From the NCBI GenBank assembly GCA_040876345.1, contig JBBDPM010000001.1, forward strand, positions 192,314 through 256,313: DNA of 64,000 bases. Reading direction: 5' to 3'. Within the stretch, counting starts at the first letter, position 1. Every line of letters begins with the position of its first letter. This document shows, piece after piece, positions 1 through 43,063 of the stretch. A program made the position numbers and the translations under genes. Below the pieces are notes generated by a model. The model did no database searches. It had not been told where the DNA came from and saw nothing but the letters and a program-made list of their open reading frames with translations. The stretch is from Candidatus Woykebacteria bacterium. GTDB taxonomy: Bacteria; Patescibacteriota; Microgenomatia; Woykebacterales; RBG-16-39-9b.

Positions 1-46
1 TCTTTACTTCCGGGGATATAAACAAGGTTTGAGCAAACCCTTCTAT

Positions 47-682
47 CTAAAATAATAAGCTTGCAAAAAAGCCTGCAATTACAGGAAGCAAAAGGTTATC
101 CCACCCTTTTGTAGTAGCTGCTTCAGCAAAAGTCAGAACCAGAGAAAAAACAACAAAAGTAACTAGACTTGATATCGAAATTTCGCCATAGTTAAACCCA
201 AAGAAGCAAAATATAGAAAATGTTGTCAGAAGGAAAGCTAGGCTGCCTTCAGAAGTTACAAAGAAAAGTTTTCTTTTCCCATATTTATAACCAACAAAGC
301 CAGCTACAGAATCTGAAATAGCTAGTACCAGCACCGAAAGTTTAAAGGCAGTCAAATTAGAGTCCCAAAATAAGAGTCCTGAAGTAACCAAACCTAGTGG
401 GAATAGGATTGATCCTAAAGAACTACGATTCACTCTTGTTACGCTCGGTAATAGCTTAAAGACTTCTGAGAACGCCAAGACCAATGTGAATAGAATTCCC
501 AAAGCTACAGCCTGTCCTAAAGTTAGGTGATAAGGCATCATAAATGCAACTAAGCCGCTAAGAAGATGAGTAGATCTTCTGGTTATCTCGGAGTTTAAAC
601 GAAGATACTTAAAAGAAATCTCCCCAATTAGAAATATTGTTACAAACAAAATAAGGAAGCTAATTAAAGGGACATCCATCAT
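47..682 (-). CDS. polytopic membrane protein of the CTP-transferase superfamily (CdsA / dolichol-kinase / CarS-like)
   Basis: 211 aa, about 6 TM segments. C-terminal DSVAGFVGYKYGKRK-type motif and overall topology resemble phosphatidate cytidylyltransferase/dolichol kinase family. Last gene of the lipid operon (overlaps the upstream gene by 4 nt). Confidence 0.45.
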   Translation of the reverse strand: MMDVPLISFLILFVTIFLIGEISFKYLRLNSEITRRSTHLLSGLVAFMMPYHLTLGQAVALGILFTLVLAFSEVFKLLPSVTRVNRSSLGSILFPLGLVTSGLLFWDSNLTAFKLSVLVLAISDSVAGFVGYKYGKRKLFFVTSEGSLAFLLTTFSIFCFFGFNYGEISISSLVTFVVFSLVLTFAEAATTKGWDNLLLPVIAGFFASLLF

Positions 683-1191
683 TTATTTTTTCTCAGAAAG
701 TAGGCAAATCCTTTATTTTTAAGTTTTAAAAGCTTAAATAAACTTCTCAGATTAAAGTAGCGAAGTAAAAGTAGTCTAGTTTTAACCATAAGAGGTAAGG
801 TATTGAGACTGACTTTTTTAAATCCTATATCGAAAAGCATGGATTGAATTAGGTTATTTGTTGTCGCTGCAAATATATTCTTTCCGACTAATTCTTTTGC
901 TGCTGAAGAGATTAATAGTTTCTTACTAATTTTCTTGCCTCTATACTCAGGGAAAACATAAAGGGTAGATAGCCCCCACCAGTTATTCCAGATTTTATAC
1001 TTTTCTACCCACCCAAGAATTTTACTGTCCTCGTTTGTGGCGATAAGAAAGTCGCCTTTCTTAAAAGAGTTTGTTATCAAACTTGTTGATCTGTAGCTTA
1101 AGTTCTCATCTTTAAGGCTAATCTCTGAGATTTTTTGTATAAGTTTATGATCTTGACTCATTGCCTTTCCGTTAACAACTAAAATTTTCAT
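679..1191 (-). CDS. GNAT family N-acetyltransferase
   Basis: YVFPEYRGKKISKKLL...AAKEL matches acetyl-CoA binding motif A of GNATs. Likely start MKILVVNG at 1191, forming an ATGA overlap with the upstream CDS stop; the track ORF extends to 1251. Confidence 0.55.
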   Translation of the reverse strand: MKILVVNGKAMSQDHKLIQKISEISLKDENLSYRSTSLITNSFKKGDFLIATNEDSKILGWVEKYKIWNNWWGLSTLYVFPEYRGKKISKKLLISSAAKELVGKNIFAATTNNLIQSMLFDIGFKKVSLNTLPLMVKTRLLLLRYFNLRSLFKLLKLKNKGFAYFLRKNK

Positions 1192-1793
1192 TTTAGTCCT
1201 AAGTAAAACATGTAAAGTGCTATAAGTAATAAAAATGTTACGATCGGCCAAATCCTTTGGGGTTTAGGGAATGCAAAAGTACCTATCATTAAAGAGCTTT
1301 GCAGAATTATTAAAAGCCACGAGGCCAATCTTAAAGAGAGGCCACTTATGGCAAGTGAAATAACTGAAACGGAAAAAATGGTAAGATAGCTGAAAACTAC
1401 TGGCAGGCCTGGGTATCCCATCTTGGTTTTCTCTCCGACATAACCCACAATGTTAAACCTGACTAGTCGAAAGACGCCAGCTAAGACAAAGATGTAAAGT
1501 ATCACAACTGATGTTAAGTCTTGCAATTTAAAATGTAGATAGAAAACAAGGGATGGGTAAATAAGATAAATAAAGGCGTCGACAAAACTATCCAATTGTC
1601 TACCAAATTCTGACTCCTGCTTAAACCTTCGTGCTAAAAAGCCGTCAAACGTGTCGGCTATAAAAGCAACCAAGGCAGTTCCAAGTGATAAGTGAAACCT
1701 ACCGTTGATTAGGAGAAGAATAGAAATCCAAGCAAGGAGAAGAGCTAAGTATGATACAAGGTTTGAAATACTAAAAGGTTTTATTTTATCCAT
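1188..1793 (-). CDS. CDP-alcohol phosphatidyltransferase
   Basis: DTFDGFLARRFKQESEFGRQLDSFVDAF matches the D-G-x2-A-R-x8-G-x3-D-x3-D signature. 201 aa, multi-TM. Confidence 0.75.
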   Translation of the reverse strand: MDKIKPFSISNLVSYLALLLAWISILLLINGRFHLSLGTALVAFIADTFDGFLARRFKQESEFGRQLDSFVDAFIYLIYPSLVFYLHFKLQDLTSVVILYIFVLAGVFRLVRFNIVGYVGEKTKMGYPGLPVVFSYLTIFSVSVISLAISGLSLRLASWLLIILQSSLMIGTFAFPKPQRIWPIVTFLLLIALYMFYLGLK

Positions 1794-3519
1794 TTAATGC
1801 AACTAATCCAGTTTCAAGATCCATTTTAATTTCCTTGTCGTTAGGGATTATCTTAGTAGCATTGCTAGCATTAATTATGCAAGGGATACCAAATTCTCGA
1901 GCCACTATTGCTGCATGAGATAATGACCCGCCCCGTTCCACTACTAGACCTCTTAATGAGGGGAAAATGATTGTCCAGCCAGGATCTGTTTGTTTGGTAA
2001 CAAGTATTTTGTTTGAATAATCTTTATTAGGATCAAAATCTACAACCACCAAAGATCTTCCTTCAATTACTGTGCCAAACTTACCTTGCGAGGCTAGGTC
2101 TCCTTTGACTGATTTTTCTTTAGTCTCAGTCGTTAATTTACGGGTCTGATTCTTAAGTAAGGTTTTATTATAAATTTCTGGTGTAAAGTTGGTAGTAATT
2201 CTTCTTGGCAGATCAATACTTTTCCAAGACTTTTCTTGACTTTTTCTTTCCGCAACAGTCTTGATAAACGAAGTTTTTTTACTTTGGTGGGATCTAAAAA
2301 AGGTAAATATTTCTTCCACTTCTAGATAGAAAACATCACTGCGGCTCTTTAATGCCTCTCGTTTTTCTAATCTTTTCCCAAACTCTCTAAAAACTTTTCT
2401 AGCAATGCCAAAAATTAATGATCTTTTAAATCGAGTCTCTTCGCGCATCTTTATTGAAGATTCCGACCAGTTTAGAATAAAGTTAAACACTAGGCGCTTA
2501 AAAAGTTGAAGATTTTTCACTTCTATTTCCAGATATCTAGTCGAGATGATTTTGCGGGGTTTTATCTCACTTCTTAAACTATTTTTTAGCAATTTTATTA
2601 AAACCAGAGGATCGTCTTGAAAACTTATTGACTCAAGTTTTAGTTCCCCGGGCATTCGTGAACCAAAATCTTCTATGTAACGGCGAATCTTTTTTCTTAT
2701 CTCGGCTAACTGACGGTCTGAATTGATTTCCGATAGTATTTTTTGGGAAGACTGAGATTTAAACAGACTTTTGGCTTTTTCGTCATTAAAAATTGTTCTG
2801 GCTATTTCCTGCATAGCTTTGCCTGGCTCGGCACTTTTTAAACCTATACCACCGGAGATAAAGTAGTTTGCTTTTGAATTATCTTTGTCATCAAGCCATT
2901 TTTTGGTTAATTTCTTCAAAATACCGACACTTATCATTACTGCAAAGTCGTTAGCAATCGGAGTACTGAAATCTTTTGTGAGAGTTTCCTCAAAACTTTC
3001 GTAAAATTCTACCAACTCTTTATCATCCTTGACGTCATAGCGCACTTTATTTAAATAGGAAAAGTTTCTATCAAAAGTCTCATTGAATCGCCTAATTAAA
3101 AGCTTCATAAACACGAACGAAATAGAGATTCGAAAGATACGATAAAAAAGATTGGCCAGATCGAATAGCCTTTCAATTAAATGGGTTTTTTGCCCGGCTT
3201 CGTAAAAATACTCTTCATCTACTCCAAGCATTTGCTCCAAGAACTTACCGTTGAATCTGTATCCTGGTAGCAAGGCGATGAGTCGGTGCCAGTTAATTAG
3301 ATGGTAATACATACTCCCGCCAATAAATGCCAACATATTTGGAAAAAGATCGGCATTTTCTGTTAAATCCTTATTACTTACGCCAAACAATTTACAGAAG
3401 CTCACATAAACTTTTTCGTAGGCTCTCTTAGCAAATGAATAAGTTAGAGGTGTAGTTACGCCTGAGTAGCTTTCATTTAAGTTTGAGTTGTCGAAAATAA
3501 AGCCTATTTTGCTAGCCAT
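1786..3519 (-). CDS. PEP-utilising-enzyme mobile (phosphohistidine swivel) domain protein with an unrecognised ~480 aa N-terminal region
   Basis: C-terminal GGSLSHAAIVAREFGIPCI is the conserved phospho-His motif of PEP synthase/PPDK/rifampin-phosphotransferase swivel domains. No ATP-grasp motifs recognised N-terminally. Confidence 0.55.
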   Translation of the reverse strand: MASKIGFIFDNSNLNESYSGVTTPLTYSFAKRAYEKVYVSFCKLFGVSNKDLTENADLFPNMLAFIGGSMYYHLINWHRLIALLPGYRFNGKFLEQMLGVDEEYFYEAGQKTHLIERLFDLANLFYRIFRISISFVFMKLLIRRFNETFDRNFSYLNKVRYDVKDDKELVEFYESFEETLTKDFSTPIANDFAVMISVGILKKLTKKWLDDKDNSKANYFISGGIGLKSAEPGKAMQEIARTIFNDEKAKSLFKSQSSQKILSEINSDRQLAEIRKKIRRYIEDFGSRMPGELKLESISFQDDPLVLIKLLKNSLRSEIKPRKIISTRYLEIEVKNLQLFKRLVFNFILNWSESSIKMREETRFKRSLIFGIARKVFREFGKRLEKREALKSRSDVFYLEVEEIFTFFRSHQSKKTSFIKTVAERKSQEKSWKSIDLPRRITTNFTPEIYNKTLLKNQTRKLTTETKEKSVKGDLASQGKFGTVIEGRSLVVVDFDPNKDYSNKILVTKQTDPGWTIIFPSLRGLVVERGGSLSHAAIVAREFGIPCIINASNATKIIPNDKEIKMDLETGLVALNG

Positions 3520-4421
3520 AAAGAAGTAGACATACCTATGTTTAACAATATTGCGTAAATGATAGAACAGAAAAATACCTTTTTAGAAGTCTTAACATTT
3601 GGCTTTTCTTTGAACTTATTAATTACTACAGCCAAATACAAAAAACAAACTAGCGCTGGAAGCAGTGGTATGAGGCTTGTACTTTTGGCCACTATAGATA
3701 TAAAAACTGAAAAAATAAGACTTAAAGCAGATAAACCAGCTAGCAATTTACTGGCGCCGTCGATGCCGTATTGAGCTGTGTATGTGTCTTTTGATGGAAT
3801 CTCTAAAGTCTTTGGTCTTATTTTCCTGGCAACTTCTAAGCTGAAAAACGAAGCCGTTAAAAGGAGGGAGTGAGCCGTAAAGAGGTAATTGGTGAGAAAA
3901 TCGAAGCTTTTTATATTTATAGAGTATAGGTAAAAGAATATGGGTATTGCTAGAACCTCATGCACTGCAATATAGACAGTAAAGTGTTTCTTTAGCCAAT
4001 ACTTGGCAAAAAATTCTTTTAATAGGAGTAAGGAATACGAAAGAGCAATAATAAAAAAAACAAAAGCTGCTCCCCCTGAATAGAGGCTTAATATCAACTC
4101 AAGTGCAAAAATAATAAAAACTAGACTTCTTAACTCGGAGAGGGAGATTAATCCTCTTGGGACAGGCCTGGTGGCGTAGTGCTCTTTATCATGCTCAAAG
4201 TCTTTAAATTCATCAAAAAGACGAAGTCTAAATAAAAAAAGGAACAGAGCAAGACAACTGAGTAAACCCCTCTCTAGTTTATAACTACCCTCTGAAAAAA
4301 CTTGAGCGAACAAACTTGCGTGTAAACCAAATATTAGAGATAGCGTAACGAACTGATACAAAGGGAAACGCTCGCTTAGATAAATAAAACCCCTTTTTAA
4401 TAATCCGCTTGTGTTCTGCAT
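3504..4421 (-). CDS. UbiA-family aromatic/isoprenoid prenyltransferase (membrane)
   Basis: D-x3-D-x3-D (LFDEFKDFEHD) Asp-rich motif and ATRPVPRGLIS (compare RPLxSGxIS of UbiA/DGGGP synthases). 8-9 TM helices. First gene of operon. Confidence 0.6.
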   Translation of the reverse strand: MQNTSGLLKRGFIYLSERFPLYQFVTLSLIFGLHASLFAQVFSEGSYKLERGLLSCLALFLFLFRLRLFDEFKDFEHDKEHYATRPVPRGLISLSELRSLVFIIFALELILSLYSGGAAFVFFIIALSYSLLLLKEFFAKYWLKKHFTVYIAVHEVLAIPIFFYLYSINIKSFDFLTNYLFTAHSLLLTASFFSLEVARKIRPKTLEIPSKDTYTAQYGIDGASKLLAGLSALSLIFSVFISIVAKSTSLIPLLPALVCFLYLAVVINKFKEKPNVKTSKKVFFCSIIYAILLNIGMSTSLWLAK

Positions 4422-4616: not shown

Positions 4617-5564
4617 TCAATATATCAGGCCAGCTAAATTTTTGCTTACTTTTAAGCCTAAAAAGTTTAAGTTAACGCACCTAAGACTAAATAGCTTATT
4701 AGGTAAGAAATTGAGGGGACTGTTGTAATTGTTTGAAGGATTTGTTTTGTTTTTGGTTTGGTTGTAAGGAATTTGAAGATTGAAACAGTAGTAGCCTTGG
4801 GGATGGTAGTAGGGTTGATCAGTGGAACCGTAAGAGCCTCTATTCTCTGATGAAGAGGTATCAAAAGTAGCACAGAGCTTGTAATAAGTATCTGTTGTTG
4901 GTTGATATTGATATGGTTGCCCAGTCTTAGGATCAGCAACATAACCATAGTAACTTAAAGTTGTGTCGCTTAGTGTTGCCGGCAGTTTACCGTTTTGACT
5001 GTAATAGTTTTCAATCGCGTACTTTAGATTATAGATGTCATTAATCCTTTGTTGATCAGATTGCTTGGCTTTAGATTGAGATCGATTCAGGGCATTAAAA
5101 AAGTAAATACCGCCAACAACTAGAATTAGTATTAGAGCTACTATAATCGCTTTTGTTCTATCAGGTTTAATGGGTTGGGTTTCTTTTTTAGATTCTTGAG
5201 GCGCTGATTCTTTACCTAATGCACTTAAGATTTGAGATTCAGCCCAGCCTTTTTCTCTTAATCTGAGAAAAATGTCACTTTCGGGCATACCATTTTGTTT
5301 TGCTTGATTTGCATAATTAATTAAAGCCGTCTCTTCTTTGGTCAAGGCTTTTTGCGGAATTTGCGTTGGTTTAGGCTTTCCGAACCAAGCATCTACCAAC
5401 CAAAGTGTAAAAGACCCAGTAGCATAGGAGAGCGGAATCCAAATAATTAGGCCAAGCCCAAGGGTGCAAACTACCGAAGCTAAAAAAATAATTGGTCCGC
5501 CAATAGGTAAGAGGACAACCATTAAAACAACAAAACCGATCAAAGTTTTAATAGGTTTAGACAT
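4617..5564 (-). CDS. membrane-anchored protein with C-terminal type-IV-pilin-like domain
   Basis: 2 N-terminal TM helices. Central TM helix followed by QQRINDIYNLKYAIENYYSQNGKLP, the helix-DNG-YP pattern typical of CPR pilin/pseudopilin proteins. No canonical prepilin leader. Pro/Tyr/Gln-rich tail. Confidence 0.4.
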   Translation of the reverse strand: MSKPIKTLIGFVVLMVVLLPIGGPIIFLASVVCTLGLGLIIWIPLSYATGSFTLWLVDAWFGKPKPTQIPQKALTKEETALINYANQAKQNGMPESDIFLRLREKGWAESQILSALGKESAPQESKKETQPIKPDRTKAIIVALILILVVGGIYFFNALNRSQSKAKQSDQQRINDIYNLKYAIENYYSQNGKLPATLSDTTLSYYGYVADPKTGQPYQYQPTTDTYYKLCATFDTSSSENRGSYGSTDQPYYHPQGYYCFNLQIPYNQTKNKTNPSNNYNSPLNFLPNKLFSLRCVNLNFLGLKVSKNLAGLIY

Positions 5565-6586
5565 TATCGTTTGTTATCCAATATAATCTCCCAATATCTA
5601 ATAAAACAGATTATCAGAGCTAGGTAAAATGGAATTGCCAAGGCAACCTCAACTGGCGTGTGCGTAATTGGTGTATTGATCCCCACGAAATTTTCCACCG
5701 CACTTGGGCCATAGATGCGAAGACCACTGGCTATAAACCAAGACTCGAGTGGAAGGAATACAGTTGTCCCAACGATCAGATAAAGAGCGAACCTCTTAGC
5801 AATGTCTAGTTGAATAAAAATTCTATCCACCAACCCTGTAGCAAGCCAGATAATTATTATCCAAACACCGCTCATTAAAATACTAATGTCGCGGTACATA
5901 TACGACCAAGATGGAAATTTGGCATTAACCACCATTGGCTCTACCATTAGTTCAAAGAAAAATACACCAATAAATGCGAGGGCCAAGTTTCTAAGCCAGG
6001 CTCTGTTTTTCACTGGCACAATAGCTTTATCATCAAGTGAAAAGCTCCAATATTTATAAAAGGCTATTACTAAACTAGTAAATACCGGTATGTAATAAAG
6101 AGCCTCGATAGGAACGTTTATTATGAAATAGCCAACCAGAGTATCCAAAACCTCTGGTGAGTAGGCTCTTATACCAAGGCCGACTACGCTAGACTCTGCA
6201 ATAAATACAGCTACAGTTATTAGTAGTAAGTAAACAATAAACCTCTGCCACTCAATATATTTTGAAAAAAACTTATCCACCAAAATTACAGCCGTCAAAA
6301 TCATTGTTGACCAACCAACAGTTAAAATCCAACTCACATCTCTATAAACATACGCCCACCACCCAAGTTTAAAATTGTTCCACATTGGAGCAGTAAAGAT
6401 TTCAAATATTAGGACTCCGGCGGCTACTAGGAAATAACGTTGAGGAATCTTATCCTTAATTCTGGATAGTAGAAAAAGAATAATTATTGTACCGAGTATA
6501 ATAAATATTTCGAAAAAAAGAATTGATAACGTTGGTGTTTTATCAAACTCGTGTAGTAAATTATATGTTATATCTTTTGGTATCAT
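5564..6586 (-). CDS. polytopic integral membrane protein with internal duplication
   Basis: 340 aa, about 10 TM. The two halves share the WW(A/S)Y(V/M)YRD(V/I)S...W...GLVD(K/R) motif. 4-nt overlap with radical SAM gene upstream; start overlaps the stop of the pilin-like gene. Confidence 0.5.
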   Translation of the reverse strand: MIPKDITYNLLHEFDKTPTLSILFFEIFIILGTIIILFLLSRIKDKIPQRYFLVAAGVLIFEIFTAPMWNNFKLGWWAYVYRDVSWILTVGWSTMILTAVILVDKFFSKYIEWQRFIVYLLLITVAVFIAESSVVGLGIRAYSPEVLDTLVGYFIINVPIEALYYIPVFTSLVIAFYKYWSFSLDDKAIVPVKNRAWLRNLALAFIGVFFFELMVEPMVVNAKFPSWSYMYRDISILMSGVWIIIIWLATGLVDRIFIQLDIAKRFALYLIVGTTVFLPLESWFIASGLRIYGPSAVENFVGINTPITHTPVEVALAIPFYLALIICFIRYWEIILDNKR

Positions 6587-7806
6587 TTAGTTATCGGAAT
6601 TCTACTAGGTTTTCTACCGTTGCCGTTGCTAGCCTGTTTTTGAGCGAGTACCTTGTCTAATATGTGTTCACCAGGCGATACTGCGTCTTTCTCTCTAAAT
6701 TCGGAATCTTTTATTTTACACCCACCCCATTTAGCACAGGTAAAACCTTCAGTGGAGGTGAGCCTATCCCAAACCCTGTAAAGAGGCTCCTCAATAGCAT
6801 TACCAAAAGTTGCATGGTTGAAATCACACGACATGACGTCTCCATAGGGCGAAAGATAAAAATAACTTGTACCACAAGAACACCCGACGCTTCGGTGGCT
6901 GGATGCATAGGCCCAAACTATGACGCCTGGGTACGATTCATCCTTATTATATTTCACACTCCGATTGATAATTTCTTCAACCCAGTTTTCATTATCAATT
7001 AAATCTTTTCTGAATTTATATCTTCCCGTTGGCATCGCATCAAATATTACGACCTCATGTATGCCCATCTTCTTAGCAAGATCAAGAATCTTTTCCATCT
7101 CACCTTCAGCAAAAGATTCTGGTGTCAAAGTGGTTGAAATACCAACAGAAAAACCCAATTCCTTTGCTTTCTCAAGGCCCTTCATCGCTTCTTTAAAGAT
7201 GCCCTCTCTGCCACGGAATAAATCATGTTTTTTAGAATCTGCAGAGTCGATGCTTACATAAACACTGTCTAAACCAGCATTTCGCAGGGTCTTTGCTTTT
7301 TTTGCTAGTAAGATTCCGTTGGTGAACATTAGAGTAGTAGATAAATCCTTATTCACCGAATCAATAATTTTTGGCAAATCCTCACGAAGTAATGGCTCAC
7401 CACCGACAAAGTTCATTACTGAGACACCAAGCTCTTGGGCGTCCTTTATCAACTTCTTCGCCTCCTCTAAAGTTAGAACTTTTCTTGATCTATCTTCCAC
7501 GGCAGTAAAGAAGCTGCAGTGTTCGCAATGGGCGTTGCAGATGTCATTTATGGCGTAGCTCATCATATTTGGAAGATTTTTATTTTGAATGGTTCTGTAG
7601 AGTTGTCTCGCGAAAAAATTTGCGGCTGGTTTACTGTATAAAGATGGAGTAGATAGAGAGTAAACAGGCTTACCATCTCGCCAGTGAATAACTTTGTTGT
7701 GGTTTAAATAAATTTTATAAATCTGATCTAAATAATCCGAAGTATAACCAAGCGTTTTAGTAGCAAGAAACCACTTTAGCTTTACTTTATTAAATAGTGA
7801 GTTCAT
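6583..7806 (-). CDS. radical SAM enzyme with C-terminal SPASM/twitch-like Cys cluster
   Basis: CNAHCEHC is the CxxxCxxC motif. FVGGEPLL glycine-rich SAM motif. C-terminal Cys-rich CSCG...C...C...C region. ~100-aa N-terminal extension of unknown type. Confidence 0.75.
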   Translation of the reverse strand: MNSLFNKVKLKWFLATKTLGYTSDYLDQIYKIYLNHNKVIHWRDGKPVYSLSTPSLYSKPAANFFARQLYRTIQNKNLPNMMSYAINDICNAHCEHCSFFTAVEDRSRKVLTLEEAKKLIKDAQELGVSVMNFVGGEPLLREDLPKIIDSVNKDLSTTLMFTNGILLAKKAKTLRNAGLDSVYVSIDSADSKKHDLFRGREGIFKEAMKGLEKAKELGFSVGISTTLTPESFAEGEMEKILDLAKKMGIHEVVIFDAMPTGRYKFRKDLIDNENWVEEIINRSVKYNKDESYPGVIVWAYASSHRSVGCSCGTSYFYLSPYGDVMSCDFNHATFGNAIEEPLYRVWDRLTSTEGFTCAKWGGCKIKDSEFREKDAVSPGEHILDKVLAQKQASNGNGRKPSRIPITK

Positions 7807-7813
7807 TTATAAC

Positions 7814-8285
7814 TAACCTTCTTCTAATATGGTCTTAAGATTTTTAAGCATCTCTTCTGCCGAGTGCTGATTTAGTTTGTCGAGCACAGTTCTGCCAAAC
7901 AACTTTTGTAAAACACCTTCTGGGAGCGCATACTCTACCTCTACTGTAACTTTAGTTCCACCGCCTTTCTCGCCAAATTTATAAGTCCAGGTAGATTCGC
8001 CACCATTCTTTGTTTTTATTTCAACTAGTGTGGTCTTTCAAATTTAGTCCCCTCGGCCCTACCAGTCAAGTCTAAACCTGCAAAGTTGAACCGCCAATTA
8101 AATGTTTGGCCTACCCCAGGCTTTTCTGGATTTATATTCGTATTTTCCATTAAATTAGGAATAAAGGCGGGGCCATTTTGTGGGTCTGCAGTATAATCAA
8201 AAACCTTTTCAAGCGGTTTCTTGATAAATATGGAGGACTTTACTTTACCCAATTTAAATATCTCCTCTGCAAATAATACTAACAT
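7814..8285 (-). pseudogene. SRPBCC (Bet v1-like / polyketide-cyclase-like) ligand-binding protein, interrupted by a 1-nt frameshift
   Basis: Track ORF 8025-8285 encodes the N-terminal half. The C-terminal half (KTTLVEIKTKNGGESTWTYKFGEKGGGTKVTVEVEYALPEG...LEEG) is in the -1 frame from ~8040 to the TAG at 7814-7816. The shift sits in an A-run (tttgaaaga). Stop lies 8 nt upstream of the radical SAM start. Confidence 0.5.
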
Positions 8286-8437
8286 TTAAAAAATTAAAAG
8301 GGAATACAATAGACTTTTTGTCCACAGTCTTACCATCTCAACAAAAAGTATATGGCGCAGCATAGTAGTCTCAAGCACCTAATCGTTATAGTCAGGTCTA
8401 ACTTTGAAGCTAAATGAGGCAAGTATATTTGTAAGTG

Positions 8438-9720
8438 TTAAATTCTTTTGACTCCTATTGTACAGCTACCAAAAAGACCAGTTAGAGTACCTCCTAGGTC
8501 AACGCTAACCCTGTCCCCGGCGGCTATAGTGGTCGGAGAAGAAATTAGCGTTCCACTAACAACTGTATTTATAGTTCCGGAGAGATTTATATTGCTGGTC
8601 AATTGAGATGTACCCGAACCTGGGGATTGTGTTCCCGTGTCAACTGTTAACTGCAGAGTTCCCAACAAGAGAGCTTTTACCGAATAGACGCATTTTACGC
8701 TGGTTAAACTATAGTTTGCATCAGCGATAAAGACAGTGTTATCAAGTAGTGAAGATAGTAGGTTAACACTGACAAAAAGCGTCTGCGGAACTATCGACCC
8801 TCCAACAGTCAAATTATCGGCAGTGGTGACAGATAAAGTCTTTCCAGATGATATTGTAGTGTTACCCGCTAACGTTATCGCCCCAGTTCCCGTATAAAAT
8901 GTGCCGGCTGAAGAAGACATATCAAAGTTTCCGTTGATAGATAAGTTACCAGTGCTGCCCCCATCAGCGATACTGAAAAGCGTGTTGGAACCATCACGGA
9001 AAACAATTGACCCAGTGTTACCCACGTCAATGTTAAAGGTAGTAGCTGTTGTAGTAAGGTTACCACCGTTTATGCCTAAATTTCCAGTTAAGGTACCACC
9101 AGATAAGGGTAGATAATTGGAAACTGTTATTAAATCAGAAATATTACTATCAGTAATGGAGCCAGTTATACTGCCAAATGATCCAAGGGCGAGAGTTAAT
9201 CCTAAATTACCCAGGGTACCCGAATTTAGAGCTGAAGCTGAAATTGAAGATCCGGATCCTAAGGTCAAAGTATCGGAAATATTTGTGTCTCCCATACTGC
9301 CAGGTTATTGACCCGAAACTTCCCAAAGCTAAAGTAACCCCAGCGTTACCAAACGTTCCCGAGTCTATGGCGGTAGACGATAGGGAAGAGGTTGGTCCAA
9401 CTGTTAGCACATTTGGTATATCAGAATCTGTCAAACCGCTAACACCAAAAACAGTCAAACTTCCCAACAACGTTCCACCCGCGAGAGGTAAATAACTCGA
9501 AGCCGTAATATTATCGGCAATATTTGAGTCAGCTAAAGTGCCGGAAACACTGCCAAACGACCCAAGGGCCAAGGTAATTCCGGAATTACCAAGCGTCCCG
9601 AAGAAATGTTTGAAGCGTTAAGTGAAGTAAGATTTGCACCGCTTAAGACTGGCAATAGACCAGAGCCATTAAGCTGAACAAGCTGACTGGCACCATTTCG
9701 GTTGATAATTCTGATGAGTT
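8438..9720 (-). pseudogene. phage-tail-fibre-like Gly/Thr/Ser-rich repeat protein, multiply frameshifted
   Basis: Repeated about 50-aa units (ALNSGTLGN.G.TLALGSFGSI.G...DSNI.D.IT.S.YLPL.GGTLTG.L). The YLPL(S/A)GGT(L/M)TG motif is characteristic of tail-fibre proteins. Reading frame changes at least three times (about 9290, about 9600, about 9720). No intact N-terminus. Confidence 0.5.
9150..9610 (-). repeat. tandem diverged DNA repeats (about 140-240 nt period) inside tail-fibre-like gene
   Basis: actgccaaa(c/t)ga(c/t)ccaagggc...aattacc recurs at about 9165, about 9305 and about 9545, encoding the LALGSFGSI..DSNI..YLPL unit. Confidence 0.5.
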
Positions 9721-9807
9721 ATCAGTTTTTACAAAGATGAAATAAAAGTTTCGTTTATCTACTACCCCTTCTCTCACTCCTTCCCAGTCGAAAAATTAGA
9801 CAATGAA

Positions 9808-10113
9808 TTGCAGCTTTTCTCAGTTAAGGACATAGCGGTTATTAAAGCTTACACCATTGGTAGAAGAGGTGAATATCGAGATTATTTTGATTTATATACG
9901 ATTCTGAAGAATGACTACATTAGGTTGCCCGAACTTATATCCAAAGCAAATAAAGTGTATGGTGGTGTTTTTGAGGAAAAGATATTTTTACAGCAGCTAG
10001 TGTATTTTGGTGATATTTTAAACTTTGGTATTACACCAACTACTGATCCCTCACCTAAAGAGGACGAAGTAAAACGTTTCTTCGAGGAATTAGCCAAAAA
10101 CTACTTACTTTGA
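9808..10113 (+). pseudogene. C-terminal remnant of AbiEii/DUF1814-type nucleotidyltransferase toxin
   Basis: 101 aa containing RDYFDLYTIL (compare the R-D-L-Y-D-L-Y block near the C-terminus of AbiEii family). No N-terminal NTase domain and no AbiEi partner upstream. Confidence 0.35.
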
Positions 10114-10117
10114 ATAG

Positions 10118-10957
10118 TTATTCTACCTTCTGCCAAATATCAGGTTTTATTCCTCTTGATTTGATCTGGTCGATCGTGGTGAGGTAAAAAGAAATGTTTG
10201 CTCCTTCTGAATCCAACTCCTTGACGATGAATTTTGAAAGAAATCCTTTGGTTACATAACTTGGGCAAATCATTAAAATTTTAGGAAAGGGATGCTTTGT
10301 ATTCTCTAGCCACTCATTTGAAAAGTAATATTCAATTAAATCTTTGATACGGCTCCGAAGAGCGTACCTTGGAACTTGCGGGCTGACCATCTCTTGAAAA
10401 TAGCGCCTAATTTCGTTATTTTCCTCCCAGGCGATGTAGGCGTTGGGTAAAGGCTGGGGAAGGTATTTGTGATCCTCAAGGTCAGTTTTAGTGAAAAGGT
10501 GGATTTTGCCTTTTGTTTCTTTTACCGCTTTTTGCAGATTCATAAAAATATCGGCTAGAAACATGCTTTGGTCTCTGAAGTACGGGGAGCGGGTCTTTTC
10601 CCGGTAGATGCGGTTTAATAAGTCTAAATTTATGTTCTTTTGCTCCTTCAAGATACTTCGGCTTTTGTTATCAAGAAAGTAGACTGCCGGTTTTGTGTTC
10701 TCACCAAGCTTTCGGGAGTAGGTTCTCGCTAAGACTCCTTTATCTGTTAACTTGGATAACCATGATCTAATACGACTGTGGTATTTGTGACTGAGCAAAG
10801 TCTGGATCTGTTGTCTGTTTAGAAAACGGAATCGGTAAAGTAGAAGAAGTATTTCAGTTTGTTTGTTAGTTACGGTCGGTGGTTGCACTAGTTTTAGGAA
10901 GGTTAGGACAGAGGCAGAGGTATTATTGATATTCCTCAAGTCGAGAGTATAGCACAC
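10118..10957 (-). CDS. replication-relaxation family protein (plasmid/mobile-element associated)
   Basis: N-terminal LTxxQxEILLLLYRFRFLNRQQI wHTH segment typical of the replication-relaxation (PF13814-like) family. 279 aa. Confidence 0.5.
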   Translation of the reverse strand: MCYTLDLRNINNTSASVLTFLKLVQPPTVTNKQTEILLLLYRFRFLNRQQIQTLLSHKYHSRIRSWLSKLTDKGVLARTYSRKLGENTKPAVYFLDNKSRSILKEQKNINLDLLNRIYREKTRSPYFRDQSMFLADIFMNLQKAVKETKGKIHLFTKTDLEDHKYLPQPLPNAYIAWEENNEIRRYFQEMVSPQVPRYALRSRIKDLIEYYFSNEWLENTKHPFPKILMICPSYVTKGFLSKFIVKELDSEGANISFYLTTIDQIKSRGIKPDIWQKVE

Positions 10958-11027
10958 CTCCCCCCTTCTTTAGAAGGGAAAGAGGTAAGGAAATTTGGAA
11001 AAATAGATTCAAAAATAGCCAAATTAT

Positions 11028-11048
11028 GTGTCAGAGCGCTGACACAAT
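11028..11048. promoter_or_regulatory. 8-bp inverted repeat TGTGTCAG-AGCG-CTGACACA upstream of replication-relaxation gene
   Basis: Perfect 8-bp arms with 4-nt spacer in the 570-bp non-coding region 5' of the 10118-10957 gene. Candidate operator/nick site. Confidence 0.3.
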
Positions 11049-11532
11049 TTGGGAAAACAAAGTAATAAACATCACTTATCGAACTCTATATTAGACCGTT
11101 GTATCAATCAATAATCACCTTTATAACTCCTGGTGTCCACTTTGGTGACCCTAACAACTCTGCAATTAAACACCTTGGTTCAGGTTCTGAAGGAATGGAA
11201 GGGTTTGAATATACTTGGAGGAATTGAGGCTAGTGATAGGTTAGGAAGTAATTACCTAAGTTGATTAGAATCGTAATTACTTTATACTTAAAAGTGAATA
11301 ATGGAAAACTATTTAATCAATTTATGAGGTAGGCTACCGAACGATGTCCGAACCTACTACAGCACATTATCTCAGAAAGATATTGCGTTCTTCAAGCATT
11401 CGTTTCTTCAACTCACTTAATTTTCCCTCGTGTAAAAATGTGAAGAAAATGTTTTTTAGTAACTCTGCGGTTTCTATTTCCTTTTGAATATTAGATCAGT
11501 TGTCAAAGTAGAAATTATGTGACTTTGAAGAA

Positions 11533-11922
11533 CTATTTATTAGGAGAAAATTCAATTATCCACTCAATACCGTATTTATCTCTAAACATACCCATATATG
11601 ATCCCATACCATCAGTCATAGGTACTTCTACATTACCTCCAGATGAAAGGCCATTAAATATTTTTTCTGCCTCTTCTTTACTTTCTGTACTTATTGCAAT
11701 TTTACTTCTATTTTCATTTTCATTTACTTGTCCCATACCTTCTGGAACATTATTTGCAATTAACATATTATCTTTACCAATAGGTAAGGTAATAAACATC
11801 ATTTTATTTTCATCTTTATCATTTAGTACTTTTCTAACATCCCCACCGAAAACCGATTTATAAAAATCAAATGCTTCTTCAGCATTACCGTTAAAGTTGA
11901 TCCAAGGATTTATTTTAATCAT
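11533..11922 (-). CDS. PhnB-like / VOC (glyoxalase-fold) family protein
   Basis: 129 aa. NFNGNAEEAFDFYKSVFGG... pattern of the PhnB/3-demethylubiquinone-9 methyltransferase-like VOC proteins. Markedly AT-rich relative to neighbours. Confidence 0.55.
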   Translation of the reverse strand: MIKINPWINFNGNAEEAFDFYKSVFGGDVRKVLNDKDENKMMFITLPIGKDNMLIANNVPEGMGQVNENENRSKIAISTESKEEAEKIFNGLSSGGNVEVPMTDGMGSYMGMFRDKYGIEWIIEFSPNK

Positions 11923-12011
11923 AGTTTAATAATATCAAATTATTGTAAATTTTAGAAGATGATTTGTATTTAAAAATAAAGAGATATATAAATCCATATT
12001 AAACTATATCG

Positions 12012-12350
12012 ATGGGTGAGGGACCACACAAACCACTTTGGTGGGTTTTAACTCTCACAATTCCAGTAATATTATATGTCGTTCGAAGACTTACAATTAA
12101 TAAAGGTGTAAATAGCTTACTTCCTTCGAATAAAGTCTCCTTTTTTATTATAGTAATTGGTTTGGTTTCATTGATTATTATTTTCTGGATTGGATATCAA
12201 ACTTATATACAAGTGGTTTTGAACAGATGCAAGAGTTATATGACTCAAGATGACAGAAAAGTGGTTAAATTAATTGACAGAACAGTCAAATATGGTGACC
12301 CCGGGGGGATTCGGACCCCCGATCTCCTGGATGAGAACCAGGTATCCTAG
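12012..12350 (+). CDS. small hypothetical membrane protein (3' part doubtful: runs antisense through the tRNA)
   Basis: ORF with 2 predicted TM helices; overlaps tRNA-Glu on opposite strand from 12293 onward. Confidence 0.2.
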   Translation: MGEGPHKPLWWVLTLTIPVILYVVRRLTINKGVNSLLPSNKVSFFIIVIGLVSLIIIFWIGYQTYIQVVLNRCKSYMTQDDRKVVKLIDRTVKYGDPGGIRTPDLLDENQVS

Positions 12351-12369
12351 GCCGCTAGACGACGGGGCC
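12293..12369 (-). tRNA. tRNA-Glu (anticodon CUC), CCA encoded
   Basis: Minus-strand sequence GGCCCCGTCGTCTAGCGGCCTAGGATACCTGGTTCTCATCCAGGAGATCGGGGGTCCGAATCCCCCCGGGGTCACCA. 7-bp acceptor stem (one G-U), D arm, anticodon loop TTCTCAT, T-arm GGGGG-TCCGAAT-CCCCC. Confidence 0.8.
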
Positions 12370-12389
12370 ACGATCATTTTGGCCGAGTA

Positions 12390-12418
12390 ATTATATTAAA
12401 AAATGGTTTGGAATGCAA
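12390..12418 (-). promoter_or_regulatory. sigma70-type promoter for tRNA-Glu
   Basis: On minus strand TTGCAT-17 nt-TATAAT, about 20 nt upstream of the tRNA 5' end. Confidence 0.5.
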
Positions 12419-12465
12419 TCTGAGTTGGGGTAGCGGGCAGACGCTCCGGAGAGAATCTGCCACAG

Positions 12466-13447
12466 CTATACCTCTCCATTCTCTTTCTTTCTTGCGTCTC
12501 CTCCTTTTCCGTTGCCGAGTCGCTCCCGACGCGTCTTACCGTAGAAGCCGGCGTATTCTGGGTGACCATTATCGATCATTAGCCGGGCGATCCTACGCAT
12601 AACTAGATCACATAGAGCCCGGTCTTCGCTAACGCCGTACCTCTTGCTGATCCGCTTGGCGCGCCGATCCCCCTCCTCATATGAGATTGGCTCACCGAAG
12701 ATGACGGTGACCTTGCTGAATGGGTGTGGACGCCAATTTCCAGGCCTCCACATCTTATCCGTTCCTATGAGGGCCATCGGCAGAATGTTCGTGTCAGGGT
12801 GACGTAGAGCAGTGGCTACTCCATCGTGGACCTTCTTCATACCCGGGACCAAGACACGAGTTGCTTCCGGGTAGATAAGTGTCCAGTAGCCCAACTTTAG
12901 AAACCTTCGTAGTTCCGGAAAAGCGGCCGTGTTGATCCGGTCCGCATTTCTCAGATGCTGTTTACGTTCCTTGCTTGTCAGTGTGCGTAGGAATTTCCTC
13001 TCCAGCATCTTTTCGGGGACGATGGGAATATAGTGGCCGCCTTCGGTTAACGAAGATCATGCCGATGACAGAACGGAACAAGTCTTCAGCGAGTTCTACC
13101 TCCCCTAGGAACCTGATGGCGGTTTGAGGGATGAACGCATCAGGCATCGCCTTGTGGTTACCGACCACTTGGGTGCCCCTTCCACTCGCCAAAGCCCCTT
13201 CAACGTTCTCGGCTCCCTTTACCACTAAGTTGCCGAGCCACCACTTTAAGTAGCCCAGCGGGAGGATAGCTGCCTTGGCGATTTGCCAAACGAGCTTATT
13301 ACGAGGATGAAACCCAGCTGGATCATCATCGTCAAGAAGCAGACCGGTCTTTGTATCCATCAACCATCTGCGTGTTAGCTCACCTACCGCGATTGTGAGA
13401 GCGGCGGTGGCAACCACGGATAGCCTGGACGCCGTTTGCTCACGCAT
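12466..13447 (-). pseudogene. PlsC-type (lysophospholipid) acyltransferase, frameshifted, in a GC-rich foreign block
   Basis: N-terminal part (12962-13447) has the HX4D motif (GNHKAMPD). C-terminal part (12466-13008) has YPEATR (compare FPEGTR) and ILPMALIG. The two are in different frames; shift near 13010-13030. G+C visibly about 55-60% versus about 38% elsewhere. Confidence 0.55.
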
Positions 13448-13558
13448 AGTGGCTCTCCCTTCCTTGAACTAACTGCCTGTAGATTTATCGACCCCTCAAC
13501 TAATCTACCATATGAATACTTGCCAGGCAAGATATATCCTAGAGTAAGCACTTATATA

Positions 13559-13587
13559 TTGACAATTTTGAAGCTGGGGAGTAGTAT
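13559..13587 (+). promoter_or_regulatory. candidate sigma70 promoter for greA
   Basis: TTGACA-17 nt-TAGTAT, about 60 nt upstream of greA. Followed by a (TA)7 tract at 13634-13648. Confidence 0.4.
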
Positions 13588-13646
13588 ACGTGCAAGTGTG
13601 CTGGCCTCGTTGTTAAAAGCGGGGTCTTTCTTTTATATATATATAT

Positions 13647-14126
13647 ATGATGCCTCAACTAAACATGAAAAACGAAGCCATTTACCTTACTTCAGAAGGT
13701 TTAAAAAAATTAAAAGACGAGTACGAAGAACTCACTAAAGTGAAAAGAAAAGAAATTACTGAGCGTATCTCCAAAGCTAGGGAATTTGGTGATATCAGTG
13801 AGAACTCCGAGTACGATACTGCCAGAGACGAGCAATCTTTTATCGAAGGTAGAATTTTAGAAATCGAGGAAATTCTTAAACACGCTAAGAAAATTAATGA
13901 AGGGGTAAAACACAGCCTTGTAGAAATGGGATCTCACGTTAAGGTTGAGGTAGATGGACATAATGATGATTTTGTTATCGTGTCTTCGGTAGAGGCTAAT
14001 CCGATCGAGGGCAAAATTTCCAACGAGTCCCCTGTGGGTAAAGCCCTTTTGGGTGCTAAGATTGGGGATGTTGTAACTGTAGCCTCATCGATCAAATCCA
14101 CCTTCAAAGTTCTTGATGTAAAGTGA
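13647..14126 (+). CDS. greA: transcription elongation factor GreA
   Basis: MKNEAIYLTSEGLKKLKDEYEEL...ISENSEYD coiled-coil plus FKBP-like C-terminal domain. True start may be the ATG at 13665. Confidence 0.85.
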   Translation: MMPQLNMKNEAIYLTSEGLKKLKDEYEELTKVKRKEITERISKAREFGDISENSEYDTARDEQSFIEGRILEIEEILKHAKKINEGVKHSLVEMGSHVKVEVDGHNDDFVIVSSVEANPIEGKISNESPVGKALLGAKIGDVVTVASSIKSTFKVLDVK

Positions 14127-18483: not shown

Positions 18484-19302
18484 ATGGAAATTTTTCAAGC
18501 GGCAGTTTTAGGAATAGTTCAAGGTTTAACCGAGTTTTTACCAATTTCATCTTCGGGGCATCTTATTTTAGTGCCGGCCGTTTTTGGTTGGAGTGATTTT
18601 TCTAACAACCTAACATTTGATGTAGCCCTTCATGTGGGTACTACTTTTGCGGTCGTTTTATTTTTTTGGAAAGATTGGCTTCAAATGGTGGGATCATTCG
18701 TCAAAAACCTACCCTATCCAAACAAAGTATTAGCTGATTTTAATTCTAAATTCTTCTTAATGATTTTGGTTGGATCTATCCCTGCTGCTATCGTTGGTCT
18801 TAATTTTCAAGATTTAATTGAGGAGAAAATTAGGAGCTCCCAAATTGTTGCAATAATGCTCATTAGTTTTGCTCTTTTGCTTTTTGCGGCCGACAGGGTC
18901 GGTGCTAAGAAAAGAACTCTGGATAATCTTGGTTTTCTTGACTCGGTAGTTGTCGGGATAGCCCAAGCTGTTTCTCTAATTCCAGGGGTTTCTCGCTCTG
19001 GTATTACTATTACGGCTGGACTTTTCAGAGGAATTAACAGGGAAAGTGCTACCAGATTTTCGTTTCTTCTCTCAACCCCTGCGATAGCCGGAGCTGCCGC
19101 TTTGAGATTTAAGGATTTTCTCGAGGTTGGAGTTGCTAATCAAGGCGCTGGAGTATTTTTAGTGGGTTTTCTGACTTCAGCAGTTACCGGCTGGATTGCA
19201 ATTAAGTTTCTATTAAAATATATTGCAAATAATAATTACAATATTTTTGTTTGGTATAGACTAATTGTAGGGATAGGTATTTTGATTTGGTTTTTTCGAT
19301 AA
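18484..19302 (+). CDS. uppP: undecaprenyl-diphosphatase
   Basis: MEIFQAAVLGIVQGLTEFLPISSSGHLIL and PGVSRSGITI signature motifs of BacA/UppP. Confidence 0.85.
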   Translation: MEIFQAAVLGIVQGLTEFLPISSSGHLILVPAVFGWSDFSNNLTFDVALHVGTTFAVVLFFWKDWLQMVGSFVKNLPYPNKVLADFNSKFFLMILVGSIPAAIVGLNFQDLIEEKIRSSQIVAIMLISFALLLFAADRVGAKKRTLDNLGFLDSVVVGIAQAVSLIPGVSRSGITITAGLFRGINRESATRFSFLLSTPAIAGAAALRFKDFLEVGVANQGAGVFLVGFLTSAVTGWIAIKFLLKYIANNNYNIFVWYRLIVGIGILIWFFR

Positions 19303-24652: not shown

Positions 24653-25378
24653 TTAAGAAATCACCGTTCCTTCAAACTTCTTTCCAGAAAGAAAATTTTC
24701 AAAGTTCCCCAAATTTTTCCCATCCATTACAACCACTCTTAGCTTTAATTTTTCGGCTTCTTTAGCGGCGATTGGGTCAAAGGGGTGATTGGCACCTGGA
24801 TCCCAGGTGTCTCCGACGAGTTTTCTGAAGCTCGCCCAGCTGATTTCCTGAAGAGGTTTAGCACCCTCATTTTTATTTGGATCCGAATCATAAACGTAGG
24901 GTATATTGGATAGATTGATTACAGTATCGGCTTCGTAAAGTTTTGCCTGGCGCACAGCGTCAAAATCAGTGGAATGGCCTGGTTTCCAACCAGCCGCAAT
25001 TAAAAGAGGCTCGTCGAACTCTTCTTTTTCGGTGTAGTGGGTAACTACTTTTAAGTGGGCGTAGTCTCGGAAAATAGTTCTAAGGAGATGAGCGTTGAGG
25101 TGGGTGACATGAACTCCAATCCAATCTACATCTTCTGGGTTCAGCGGACCCACGTCTTGAGCTGCCTTTTGGTAGTGTCGACAAATTGCCCCGCCACCAG
25201 CAACTATAATGAAGCGTTTACCTTCTTCTATTTTCGATATAATGCTTGCTCGAAAACGTTTTAAAAAAAGGTGGTCAACGCCACCATTTGGGATAATTAA
25301 AGATCCGCCGAGAGATATTACAATTGGAGTTGTGTACATCCAAGAAGATATTATATAACAAAGCCCAAATATTTGCAT
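24653..25378 (-). CDS. pyrH: UMP kinase, archaeal type (amino-acid kinase family)
   Basis: IVISLGGS, IVAGGGAICRHY, IGVHVTHLNAHLL and KPGHSTDFDA blocks align with archaeal UMPK. Isopentenyl-phosphate kinase not fully excluded. Confidence 0.6.
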   Translation of the reverse strand: MQIFGLCYIISSWMYTTPIVISLGGSLIIPNGGVDHLFLKRFRASIISKIEEGKRFIIVAGGGAICRHYQKAAQDVGPLNPEDVDWIGVHVTHLNAHLLRTIFRDYAHLKVVTHYTEKEEFDEPLLIAAGWKPGHSTDFDAVRQAKLYEADTVINLSNIPYVYDSDPNKNEGAKPLQEISWASFRKLVGDTWDPGANHPFDPIAAKEAEKLKLRVVVMDGKNLGNFENFLSGKKFEGTVIS

Positions 25379-43059: not shown

Positions 43060-43063
43060 GCTT

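Follow-up and report, generated by a model that had tools for sequence, protein, structure and literature searches.

The window analysed here is a 64,000-nucleotide (nt) stretch of a Candidatus Woykebacteria contig (JBBDPM010000001.1, positions 192,314 to 256,313), and near its left end lie five overlapping minus-strand genes for a UbiA-family prenyltransferase, a dikinase-type protein of 577 amino acids (aa), a CDP-alcohol phosphatidyltransferase, a GNAT protein and a 211-aa membrane protein of the CTP_transf_1 superfamily. Together, these genes make up the downstream half of a larger cluster that is common to at least 9 bacterial phyla. The reading we favor, at a probability of roughly 0.55, is that the cluster constitutes a modular pathway for building and decorating a polar membrane lipid with an isoprenoid tail, whose head group in this genome would be of the serine type. 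An isoprenoid substrate is suggested because four independent components point to it: a UbiA protein near DGGGP synthase (DGGGPS) and chlorophyll synthase (ChlG), a neighboring homologue of CarS and not of CdsA, a polyprenol-kinase-like protein, and a lycopene-cyclase-like membrane protein. The catalytic residues are intact in the motif of the CDP-alcohol transferase (CDPOH), at His535 of the dikinase, in the CX3CX2C motif of a radical SAM enzyme, and in the first motif of the UbiA protein. What seems new is the combination, apparently undescribed and widely conserved, in which known enzyme families (a DGGGPS-like UbiA, a true CarS and a serine enzyme) are joined by unexpected partners, namely a split dikinase, a GNAT and a module of radical SAM and lycopene-cyclase-like proteins.

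A conserved core of prenyltransferase and dikinase

A genome scan with an alignment of short-architecture dikinases recovered 80 loci in at least 9 phyla, which were annotated locally with phmmer and had their open reading frames (ORFs) clustered; labels such as L001 and L003 denote these loci, L001 holding the left flank of the window. Presence is counted below over the 43 loci that have 5 kb of flank or more, and adjacency over 68 loci. The sources comprise many classes of Patescibacteria, Elusimicrobiota, Dehalococcoidia, Obscuribacterales/Melainabacteria, Clostridia, Cryomorphaceae/Schleiferiaceae, Vicinamibacterales, Verrucomicrobia and Armatimonadota, with an additional locus in Oscillatoria princeps, so that the cluster ranges from minimal Candidate Phyla Radiation (CPR) genomes to an 8.6-Mb cyanobacterial contig. 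Three of the clostridial carriers are cultured (Lachnoanaerobaculum saburreum, L. orale and L. gingivalis). In 52 of 68 loci, the gene directly upstream of the dikinase gene is that for UbiA. Of the 43 loci, 39 have a GNAT and 33 the kinase-like membrane protein. For the head group, 18 of the 43 loci have only a CDP-alcohol transferase, 20 have only the BtaA-like DUF3419 protein, 2 carry DUF3419 as a fusion with the dikinase, and a single locus has both genes, far apart. CarS is restricted to loci with a CDP-alcohol transferase (24 of 24 cases). The core is UbiA plus a rifampin-phosphotransferase-type dikinase, usually with a GNAT, and the two head-group modules are nearly mutually exclusive. 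A whole nine-gene operon is seen in Elusimicrobia (L003, 7129-15349) and an equal gene set in Patescibacteria, and the order in Lachnoanaerobaculum, DgkA-CarS-CDPOH-Psd, is itself pathway-like; with its flanking genes, that locus runs dikinase-GNAT-DgkA-CarS-Pss-Psd-UbiA. Other recurring accessory genes encode an AMP-binding enzyme, a formyltransferase-like protein, SRPBCC, Psd and DgkA. One locus labelled as archaeal (L045, DAOSDI010000014.1, Candidatus Pacearchaeota archaeon, 5521-13768) carries the cluster as it stands in the bacterial Paceibacterota locus L046, and this DPANN-binned copy is either a mis-binning or an inter-domain transfer. No description of the gene combination was found in the full-text literature, subscription journals lying outside the coverage, and the UbiA neighborhood mentioned in the Lipocone paper differs from this cluster.

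The preliminary description of this DNA, made from the letters and ORFs, likened three of the five products to archaeal enzyme classes, namely DGGGP synthase, CDP-archaeol synthase and the archaetidyl-headgroup synthases. For UbiA, the likeness stands. All 46 orthologues from the cluster match NF010118 (PRK13592), an uncharacterised “prenyltransferase” model on which the Lachnoanaerobaculum protein scores 367 bits. The next models are PRK12884 (40 of 46), two DGGGPS models (21 and 16), EboC (21) and two chlorophyll synthase models (17 and 16); haem O synthase is matched by a single orthologue, and MenA, 4-hydroxybenzoate UbiA and COQ2 by none of the 46. The grouping with menaquinone, ubiquinone or protohaem enzymes that had been named in advance as refuting is therefore not what is seen. 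Against solved structures, the family profile finds only the DGGGPS structure 6m31 (MjDGGGPS, 7.7e-11) and chlorophyll synthase (0.014), both of which are enzymes that prenylate oxygen. The window protein itself has no match to the DGGGPS equivalog models PRK12882 and PRK12883, and its orthologues reach E values of 1.8e-6 to 8e-8 at best, far under the cut-offs of 296-353 bits. The first Asp-rich motif is kept as RLFDEFKDxxHDx6RPVPRG, with D70, D74, D78, R85 and G90 invariant in the 46 orthologues. By these comparisons, the protein belongs to the PRK13592 clade, and the characterised enzymes nearest to it are DGGGPS and chlorophyll synthase rather than MenA, UbiA or haem O synthase.

The second core protein had been credited with a phospho-His swivel as its only recognisable part. 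This undersells it: the 577-aa product aligns to positions 323-889 of the 898 in NF004881, at 426 bits. Precomputed Pfam domains are Rph_4th and PEP-utilizers (the latter at 79.9 bits), the best sequence match in the PDB is 5fbs (2e-23), and an AlphaFold2 model (pLDDT 86.7) finds the Listeria rifampin phosphotransferase 5fbt in Foldseek (E 4e-20, TMq 0.67). The catalytic His535 is invariant. More than 1000 relatives share the same short architecture. The protein is hence a dikinase of the Rph/PigC type, with a rifampin-binding-type substrate domain and a His domain, and without the ATP-grasp. In other loci, the ATP-grasp is either fused, in full-length proteins with NF004881 scores as high as 797 bits, or has an adjacent PPDK_N gene of its own (250-280 aa). 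Characterised relatives, Rph and PigC/RedH, phosphorylate oxygen atoms on hydrophobic substrates. In the Obscuribacterales loci L028, L031 and L047, the dikinase and the BtaA-like DUF3419 form one protein of about 1300 aa (for example L031, 9047-13003), a Rosetta-stone link suggesting that both enzymes act on one intermediate.

The dikinase is also where a secondary-metabolite cluster could be read, one in which a PigC/RedH-like enzyme activates a carbonyl, UbiA prenylates or cyclises a small molecule, and the GNAT and an acyl-AMP ligase do the tailoring. The resemblance to RedH/PigC (120-340 bits), the AMP-binding, formyltransferase-like and SRPBCC genes beside the cluster in some loci, and the presence of the cluster in filamentous cyanobacteria would all suit such a role. 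We nevertheless consider it very unlikely, given that the cluster is kept in minimal CPR genomes of many classes and steadily coupled to phospholipid head-group enzymes, and that its dikinases fall in the clade NF004881/NF004882 rather than with PigC/RedH.

Activating and head-group enzymes

In the preliminary description, the 211-aa membrane protein was the CarS/CdsA counterpart. Its superfamily holds up; the counterpart does not. A direct Pfam search gives CTP_transf_1 at E = 0.055 (13.7 bits, cut-off 24), while profile-profile alignment of its family (A2) with PF01148-positive orthologues (A4) gives an hhalign probability of 100% (E = 9.6e-39). CarS as its identity was rejected, with an hhalign probability of only 2% against the CarS-like family, and so was CdsA, where the 10% obtained against the Escherichia coli protein comes from CdsA residues 164-213 only (D..A...G...GK/KT.EGS). 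Profile searches of the PDB with the 211-aa family returned zero matches. E21, R35, H39, G90, D124, G193, D195 and N196 are invariant, in the motifs TRK..H and E....G.DNL..P, the latter standing in place of the cytidylyltransferase signature (SxxKR...D..DS). We take these motifs to be those of dolichol and phytol kinases, and a resemblance of this kind is the result that had been named as refuting the CDP-archaeol synthase reading of this protein. To us it looks like a polyprenol (dolichol/phytol) kinase-like protein and not a cytidylyltransferase. In the Lachnoanaerobaculum locus L072, its position is occupied by DgkA, which in Gram-positive bacteria is the undecaprenol kinase. Long forms of the kinase-like protein have a C-terminal extension of about 220 aa with no Pfam match and no kinship to other cluster families.

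This protein raises the question of polyprenyl-phosphate carrier metabolism, in which the kinases would recycle undecaprenol-type carriers, and the transferase and UbiA would attach a phospho-head group to a polyprenyl phosphate for the synthesis of an envelope glycan or a teichoic-acid-like polymer, in the manner of Rv3806c. The polyprenol-kinase-like character, the substitution by DgkA, and the presence of UppS and BacA on the same contig are what one would expect from it (the BacA/UppP undecaprenyl-diphosphatase gene is at 18484-19302 on the plus strand). Yet the cluster has neither a glycosyltransferase nor a flippase; both Pss-Psd and its BtaA-like alternative belong to the head-group synthesis of diradyl membrane lipids; and neither solved structures nor NCBIfam models yield a decaprenyl-phosphate phosphoribosyltransferase match to the UbiA profile. 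We rate this explanation as unlikely.

A genuine CarS homologue does exist, immediately adjoining and just beyond the window edge. The CarS-like gene is L001 13465-14025, and its C-terminus equals the translation of window bases 2-55. Its product has PF01864 at 48 bits (cut-off 22), its family profile finds only ApCarS in the PDB (5guf, 1.6e-9, residues 37-172), and the E. coli CdsA signature region is aligned at an hhalign probability of 92%, with the signature retained. It scores 60.9 bits on the NCBIfam equivalog NF003114, under the cut-off of 148, and NCBI annotates it as “CDP-archaeol synthase.” CarS is reported to prefer unsaturated isoprenoid lipid phosphates to phosphatidic acid (PMC9385802).

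The CDP-alcohol transferase of the window has its motif, D(x)2DG(x)2AR(x)8G(x)3D(x)3D, readable at D47-D72. Its top NCBIfam models are archaetidylserine synthase NF038087 (83.1 bits, cut-off 240) and pssA (68 bits, cut-off 107), and its best PDB match is MjPSS (7b1k, 1e-8). In L072, Psd comes directly after the orthologue. The likeness to an archaetidyl-headgroup enzyme is thus narrowed to a probable serine-type (Pss/archaetidylserine-synthase-like) transferase. The GNAT of the window, listed at first as an ORF of 679-1251, truly starts at the ATG at 1191 and has exactly the product of the NCBI gene call. A GNAT accompanies both head-group modules and may act on the head-group amine, because either head-group route gives an alpha-amino acid head group.

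From these assignments, one might propose the archaeal-type pathway proper, with UbiA as DGGGP synthase, CarS making CDP-archaeol, archaetidylserine formed, and diether archaeal lipids as the outcome. For each of the three proteins, the characterised enzyme closest to it is archaeal, the name given by NCBI to the neighbor agrees, and the window also encodes an IPK-like kinase along with a short-chain prenyl synthase. The scores, however, are far below the equivalog cut-offs, as with CarS above, and the universal partners, dikinase and GNAT, would have no role in such a pathway. Moreover, PcrB and G1P dehydrogenase are absent from the 64-kb window, from the 10 kb to its left and from the five other loci with Pfam lists. 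The absence of G1P dehydrogenase and GGGP synthase (GGGPS) from the window had been noted at the outset. A strict archaeal diether route is unsupported, because no GGGPS or G1P dehydrogenase occurs in any locus with a gene list, and we regard it as highly improbable. The earlier suggestion of polyprenyl-carrier metabolism or an ether-lipid-like route is partly supported, in that this is a lipid operon with an isoprenoid flavor.

The extended cluster and its surroundings

The five overlapping genes were recovered where they had been placed, with families that exceed their Pfam cut-offs for UbiA, the CDP-alcohol transferase and the GNAT (Table 1); successive genes overlap by 16, 8 and 4 nt. The boundaries drawn around them, 47-4421, were too narrow: the cluster runs to 8261 and past the left edge. 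Beyond that edge are three convergent genes for the CarS-like protein, a thioester-reductase-like SDR (NAD_binding_4, 172 bits; TIGR01746, 127 bits) and an intact PlsC-type acyltransferase about 2 kb outside the window. To the right, four genes (4617-8261) co-occur with the five in other genomes. The missing ATP-grasp of the dikinase, the module of radical SAM and lycopene-cyclase-like proteins, and the wide conservation of the cluster were all absent from the preliminary description. A promoter and terminator scan gave fewer promoter-like sites than shuffled sequence.

Table 1. Genes of the cluster within the window, with the evidence for each assignment
Feature	Coordinates	Strand	Evidence
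UbiA prenyltransferase, PRK13592 clade	3504-4421	-	PF01040 43.3 bits (cut-off 34.2; residues 48-287); NF010118 58.6 bits, full length
Dikinase substrate-binding and phospho-His swivel domains, 577 aa	1786-3519	-	NF004881; PEP-utilizers
CDP-alcohol phosphatidyltransferase, probably serine-type	1188-1793	-	PF01066 66.9 bits (cut-off 22)
GNAT, 170 aa	679-1191	-	PF00583 29.4 bits (cut-off 20.7)
211-aa CTP_transf_1-superfamily membrane protein	47-682	-	hhalign to PF01148-positive orthologues
CarS-like gene, 3′ end (last 17 codons and stop), convergent	2-55	+	C-terminus LYFRGYKQGLSKPFYLK*
Small “SVCT” protein with two transmembrane helices, plus an extra helix and a pilin-like tail	4617-5564	-	clustering; alignment
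340-aa polytopic membrane protein	5564-6586	-	family alignment; PF18916 sub-threshold
Radical SAM/SPASM enzyme	6583-7806	-	PF04055 101.6 bits; SPASM 21.5 bits, exactly at cut-off
SRPBCC (Polyketide_cyc2) gene, frameshifted	7819-8261	-	tblastn with the intact L006 orthologue

The radical SAM enzyme has the motif C90x3C94x2C97 and further cysteines toward the C-terminus (C309, C311, C327, C357 and C363). No NCBIfam model reaches its cut-off, NirJ2 and AhbD being nearest, and in the PDB, BlsE, MoaA and SkfB rank above GDGT-MAS. A Tes-like tetraether synthase was considered and set aside, since the match to 7tol (3e-10) covers only residues 83-226, the generic core. The enzyme is a generic SPASM-type one and not specifically Tes-like. 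It is always paired with the 340-aa membrane protein, which it adjoins in 14 loci. The family of this membrane protein has a mean identity of 52% and two internal repeats, each with a terminal P-x-E. Its only recurrent Pfam match is the lycopene cyclase domain PF18916, found in 9 of 34 relatives (best 3.1e-5), and the window protein aligns over residues 86-180 with the full 92-position model. An AlphaFold2 model (pLDDT 87.5) has no solved structural relative. This alignment would be consistent with a remote kinship to the lycopene cyclase domain of the CrtYc/d type. Between CPR and filamentous cyanobacteria (relatives P0129, P0193 and P0194), the 340-aa protein is 55-60% identical; the same comparison is lower for other cluster proteins, at about 40% for the dikinase and about 25% for UbiA. 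Such high conservation suggests either very strong constraint or recent transfer.

Residues 1-120 of the 4617-5564 product align with proteins of 125-165 aa that are placed after the membrane protein in other loci, the small transmembrane protein being found in L003, L005, L006, L009-L011, L014, L036, L045, L046, L051, L086 and L088. Its fusion to a transmembrane helix and a type-IV-pilin-like C-terminal domain is seen in this genome alone among the loci. The SRPBCC gene (family PF10604, 55.9 bits), directly upstream of the radical SAM gene, is intact in L006 and L022. Here, the L006 protein aligns by tblastn in two pieces, its residues 1-78 with 8261-8028 (frame -3) and its residues 76-148 with 8037-7819 (frame -2), putting the single frameshift near 8030.

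Further into the window, the block at 8438-13447 beside tRNA-Glu (12293-12369) holds a Replic_Relax-like ORF (10118-10957), a glyoxalase gene and a frameshifted PlsC gene, and resembles what is left of an integrated element. The PlsC fragment (12466-13447), which the first reading of the sequence had already seen as frameshifted and foreign, has its HKAMPD and YPEATR motifs in separate ORFs and is GC-rich (46% against about 38% in its surroundings). The GGPP-type polyprenyl synthase reported at 25418-26548 was also recovered (plus strand, FPP/GGPP type); divergent from it is a minus-strand gene for an AA_kinase protein of isopentenyl-phosphate-kinase size (24653-25378), and the two could supply a prenyl donor for the cluster. 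An LPG_synthase_C protein, similar to the C-terminal part of MprF, is encoded at 22103-23014 (minus strand), and fatty-acid synthesis genes are absent from the window. A PhdYeFM/ParE toxin-antitoxin pair lies at 42805-43312 and an rve-family integrase gene at 48586-49305.

A proposed pathway and its known relatives

Starting from the observed family assignments, catalytic motifs, gene order and head-group swap, we infer all the substrates, the order of the first three steps and the acceptor of UbiA as follows. In the first step, UbiA would use a prenyl diphosphate to prenylate, with its allylic group, an oxygen atom on an acceptor bound to the membrane, in ether- or ester-forming chemistry as in DGGGP synthase and chlorophyll synthase; the IPK-like kinase and short-chain polyprenyl synthase encoded at 24.6-26.5 kb might provide the donor. 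In the second, the Rph-type dikinase, translationally coupled to UbiA, would use phospho-His535 to phosphorylate a hydroxyl group on a hydrophobic intermediate, which would require an ATP-grasp partner encoded elsewhere; alternatively, it may convert a prenyl phosphate to the diphosphate. In the third, the polyprenol-kinase-like protein would supply or recycle a lipid monophosphate, which in the fourth the adjacent CarS homologue would turn into a CDP-lipid. The Pss-type CDP-alcohol transferase would then add L-serine (fifth step), and the GNAT would acylate or acetylate the head-group amine (sixth). Remodeling of the isoprenoid tail may fall to an optional module made up of the radical SAM enzyme, the lycopene-cyclase-like protein and their small transmembrane companion (seventh), and the thioester-reductase-like SDR and PlsC may give an acyl- or alkyl-derived chain (eighth).

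A number of points weigh against this proposal. First, its product and the enzyme activities are predictions from gene sequence. In UbiA, the second Asp-rich motif is not the canonical DxxxD, the protein having E196xxR199K200 ... D-T-Y214 instead. The likeness of the 211-aa protein to prenol kinases is one of motifs, and the protein accompanies both head-group modules, which makes its place in the pathway ambiguous. The lycopene-cyclase link is below threshold in Pfam (15 bits for the window protein, cut-off 27, E 0.037). The GNAT is a shortened, divergent form at the equivalent position, aligning with the C-terminal half of two-domain GNATs of about 340 aa at 12-19% identity, and the frameshift in SRPBCC is either that of a pseudogene or an assembly error. 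The counts of loci are not counts of independent events, because the scan was baited with the dikinase and took in close kin (nine Lachnoanaerobaculum and about 15 Cryomorphaceae/Schleiferiaceae). Lastly, the alignment of the dikinase leaves out the PPDK_N part of the model, the upstream gene overlaps the start of the dikinase gene, and a search with a hidden Markov model finds no PPDK_N in the window, in the 10 kb to its left, or in six related loci of the Microgenomates type. With no PPDK_N nearby, the dikinase may be inactive in the Woykebacteria genome. A database search with the PPDK_N profile returned 3225 stand-alone proteins, none of them labelled Woykebacteria among the best 120 of the 3225.

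Taken further, the lack of an ATP-grasp partner, the frameshifted SRPBCC, the half-length GNAT and the mobile-element remnant 0.2-5 kb upstream could mean that the cluster is decaying and non-functional in this genome. To this explanation we give little credence. The other eight ORFs are intact, with catalytic motifs kept and starts and stops overlapping, and stand-alone PPDK_N proteins are common in Patescibacteria. Moreover, a short GNAT without an adjacent PPDK_N is also found in L006, L009, L014, L051 and L007, and since this architecture recurs in related loci, a stable sub-variant is indicated, against simple decay.

A bolder version of the lipid pathway can be formulated, though we hold it doubtful: a previously unrecognised route by which bacteria would make isoprenoid-ether phospholipids, archaeal-like or hybrid, independently of G1P dehydrogenase and GGGPS, and in which UbiA and the dikinase would make a prenylated lipid phosphate, CarS plus the serine transferase or a BtaA-like enzyme would add an amino-acid head group, the GNAT would N-acylate it, and the radical SAM/lycopene-cyclase-like pair would modify the tail. 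If true, such a route in CPR, Elusimicrobia, Dehalococcoidia, Melainabacteria, cyanobacteria and oral Clostridia would blur the “lipid divide” beyond the current record, archaeal-type lipid enzymes in bacteria having been documented so far mainly as GGGPS/DGGGPS pairs of the Fibrobacteres-Chlorobi-Bacteroidetes (FCB) group. The prevailing view of CPR bacteria is that most of lipid synthesis is missing from them. Since carriers include cultured Lachnoanaerobaculum as well as Oscillatoria, the product should be identifiable by ordinary genetics and lipidomics, and its identity would assign a function to several large families that are misannotated or unnamed, namely the “phosphoenolpyruvate synthase” models PRK06241.2-x, the “prenyltransferase” model PRK13592 and the 340-aa membrane protein.

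Among known systems, the archaeal segment of DGGGPS, CarS and archaetidylserine synthase brings the same three families into one neighborhood. The cluster differs from it in having no GGGPS or G1P dehydrogenase, in a UbiA from the separate PRK13592 clade with a non-canonical second motif, in being bound to a dikinase and a GNAT, and in that CarS and Pss are replaceable by a BtaA-like enzyme. Bacteria of the FCB group (Candidatus Cloacimonetes) have co-localised GGGPS and DGGGPS without CarS (Villanueva et al. 2021, PMC7852524). Both they and the carriers of the present cluster are bacteria with archaeal-like isoprenoid-lipid genes, but the cluster has CarS, has no GGGPS and uses another UbiA clade. 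With Rph and PigC/RedH, the cluster dikinase has in common a helical substrate-binding domain and a phospho-His swivel; unlike in those enzymes, the ATP-grasp is separate, or unfound here, the clade is NF004881/NF004882, and the context is one of membrane-lipid genes.

Two further likenesses concern the kinases. The phenylphosphate synthase of Thauera (PpsA/PpsB) is a split dikinase, with an ATP-binding subunit and a His/substrate subunit, that phosphorylates a hydroxyl; its substrate domain is another one, and it serves aromatic catabolism and not a lipid cluster. Phytol salvage in plants and cyanobacteria proceeds from VTE5, a CTP-dependent phytol kinase, through VTE6 to the UbiA-type VTE2. 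This likewise joins a prenol kinase of the CTP_transf_1 type, a second kinase and a UbiA protein, but VTE6 is a DUF92 membrane protein instead of a dikinase, prenylation is of homogentisate, and head-group enzymes are lacking. Finally, BtaA (DUF3419) offers the comparison for the head group. DUF3419 is absent from the window and, unlike BtaA, is fused to the dikinase in some loci; it substitutes for CarS and Pss in about half of the related loci and would likewise add an amino-acid head group, in its case homoserine.

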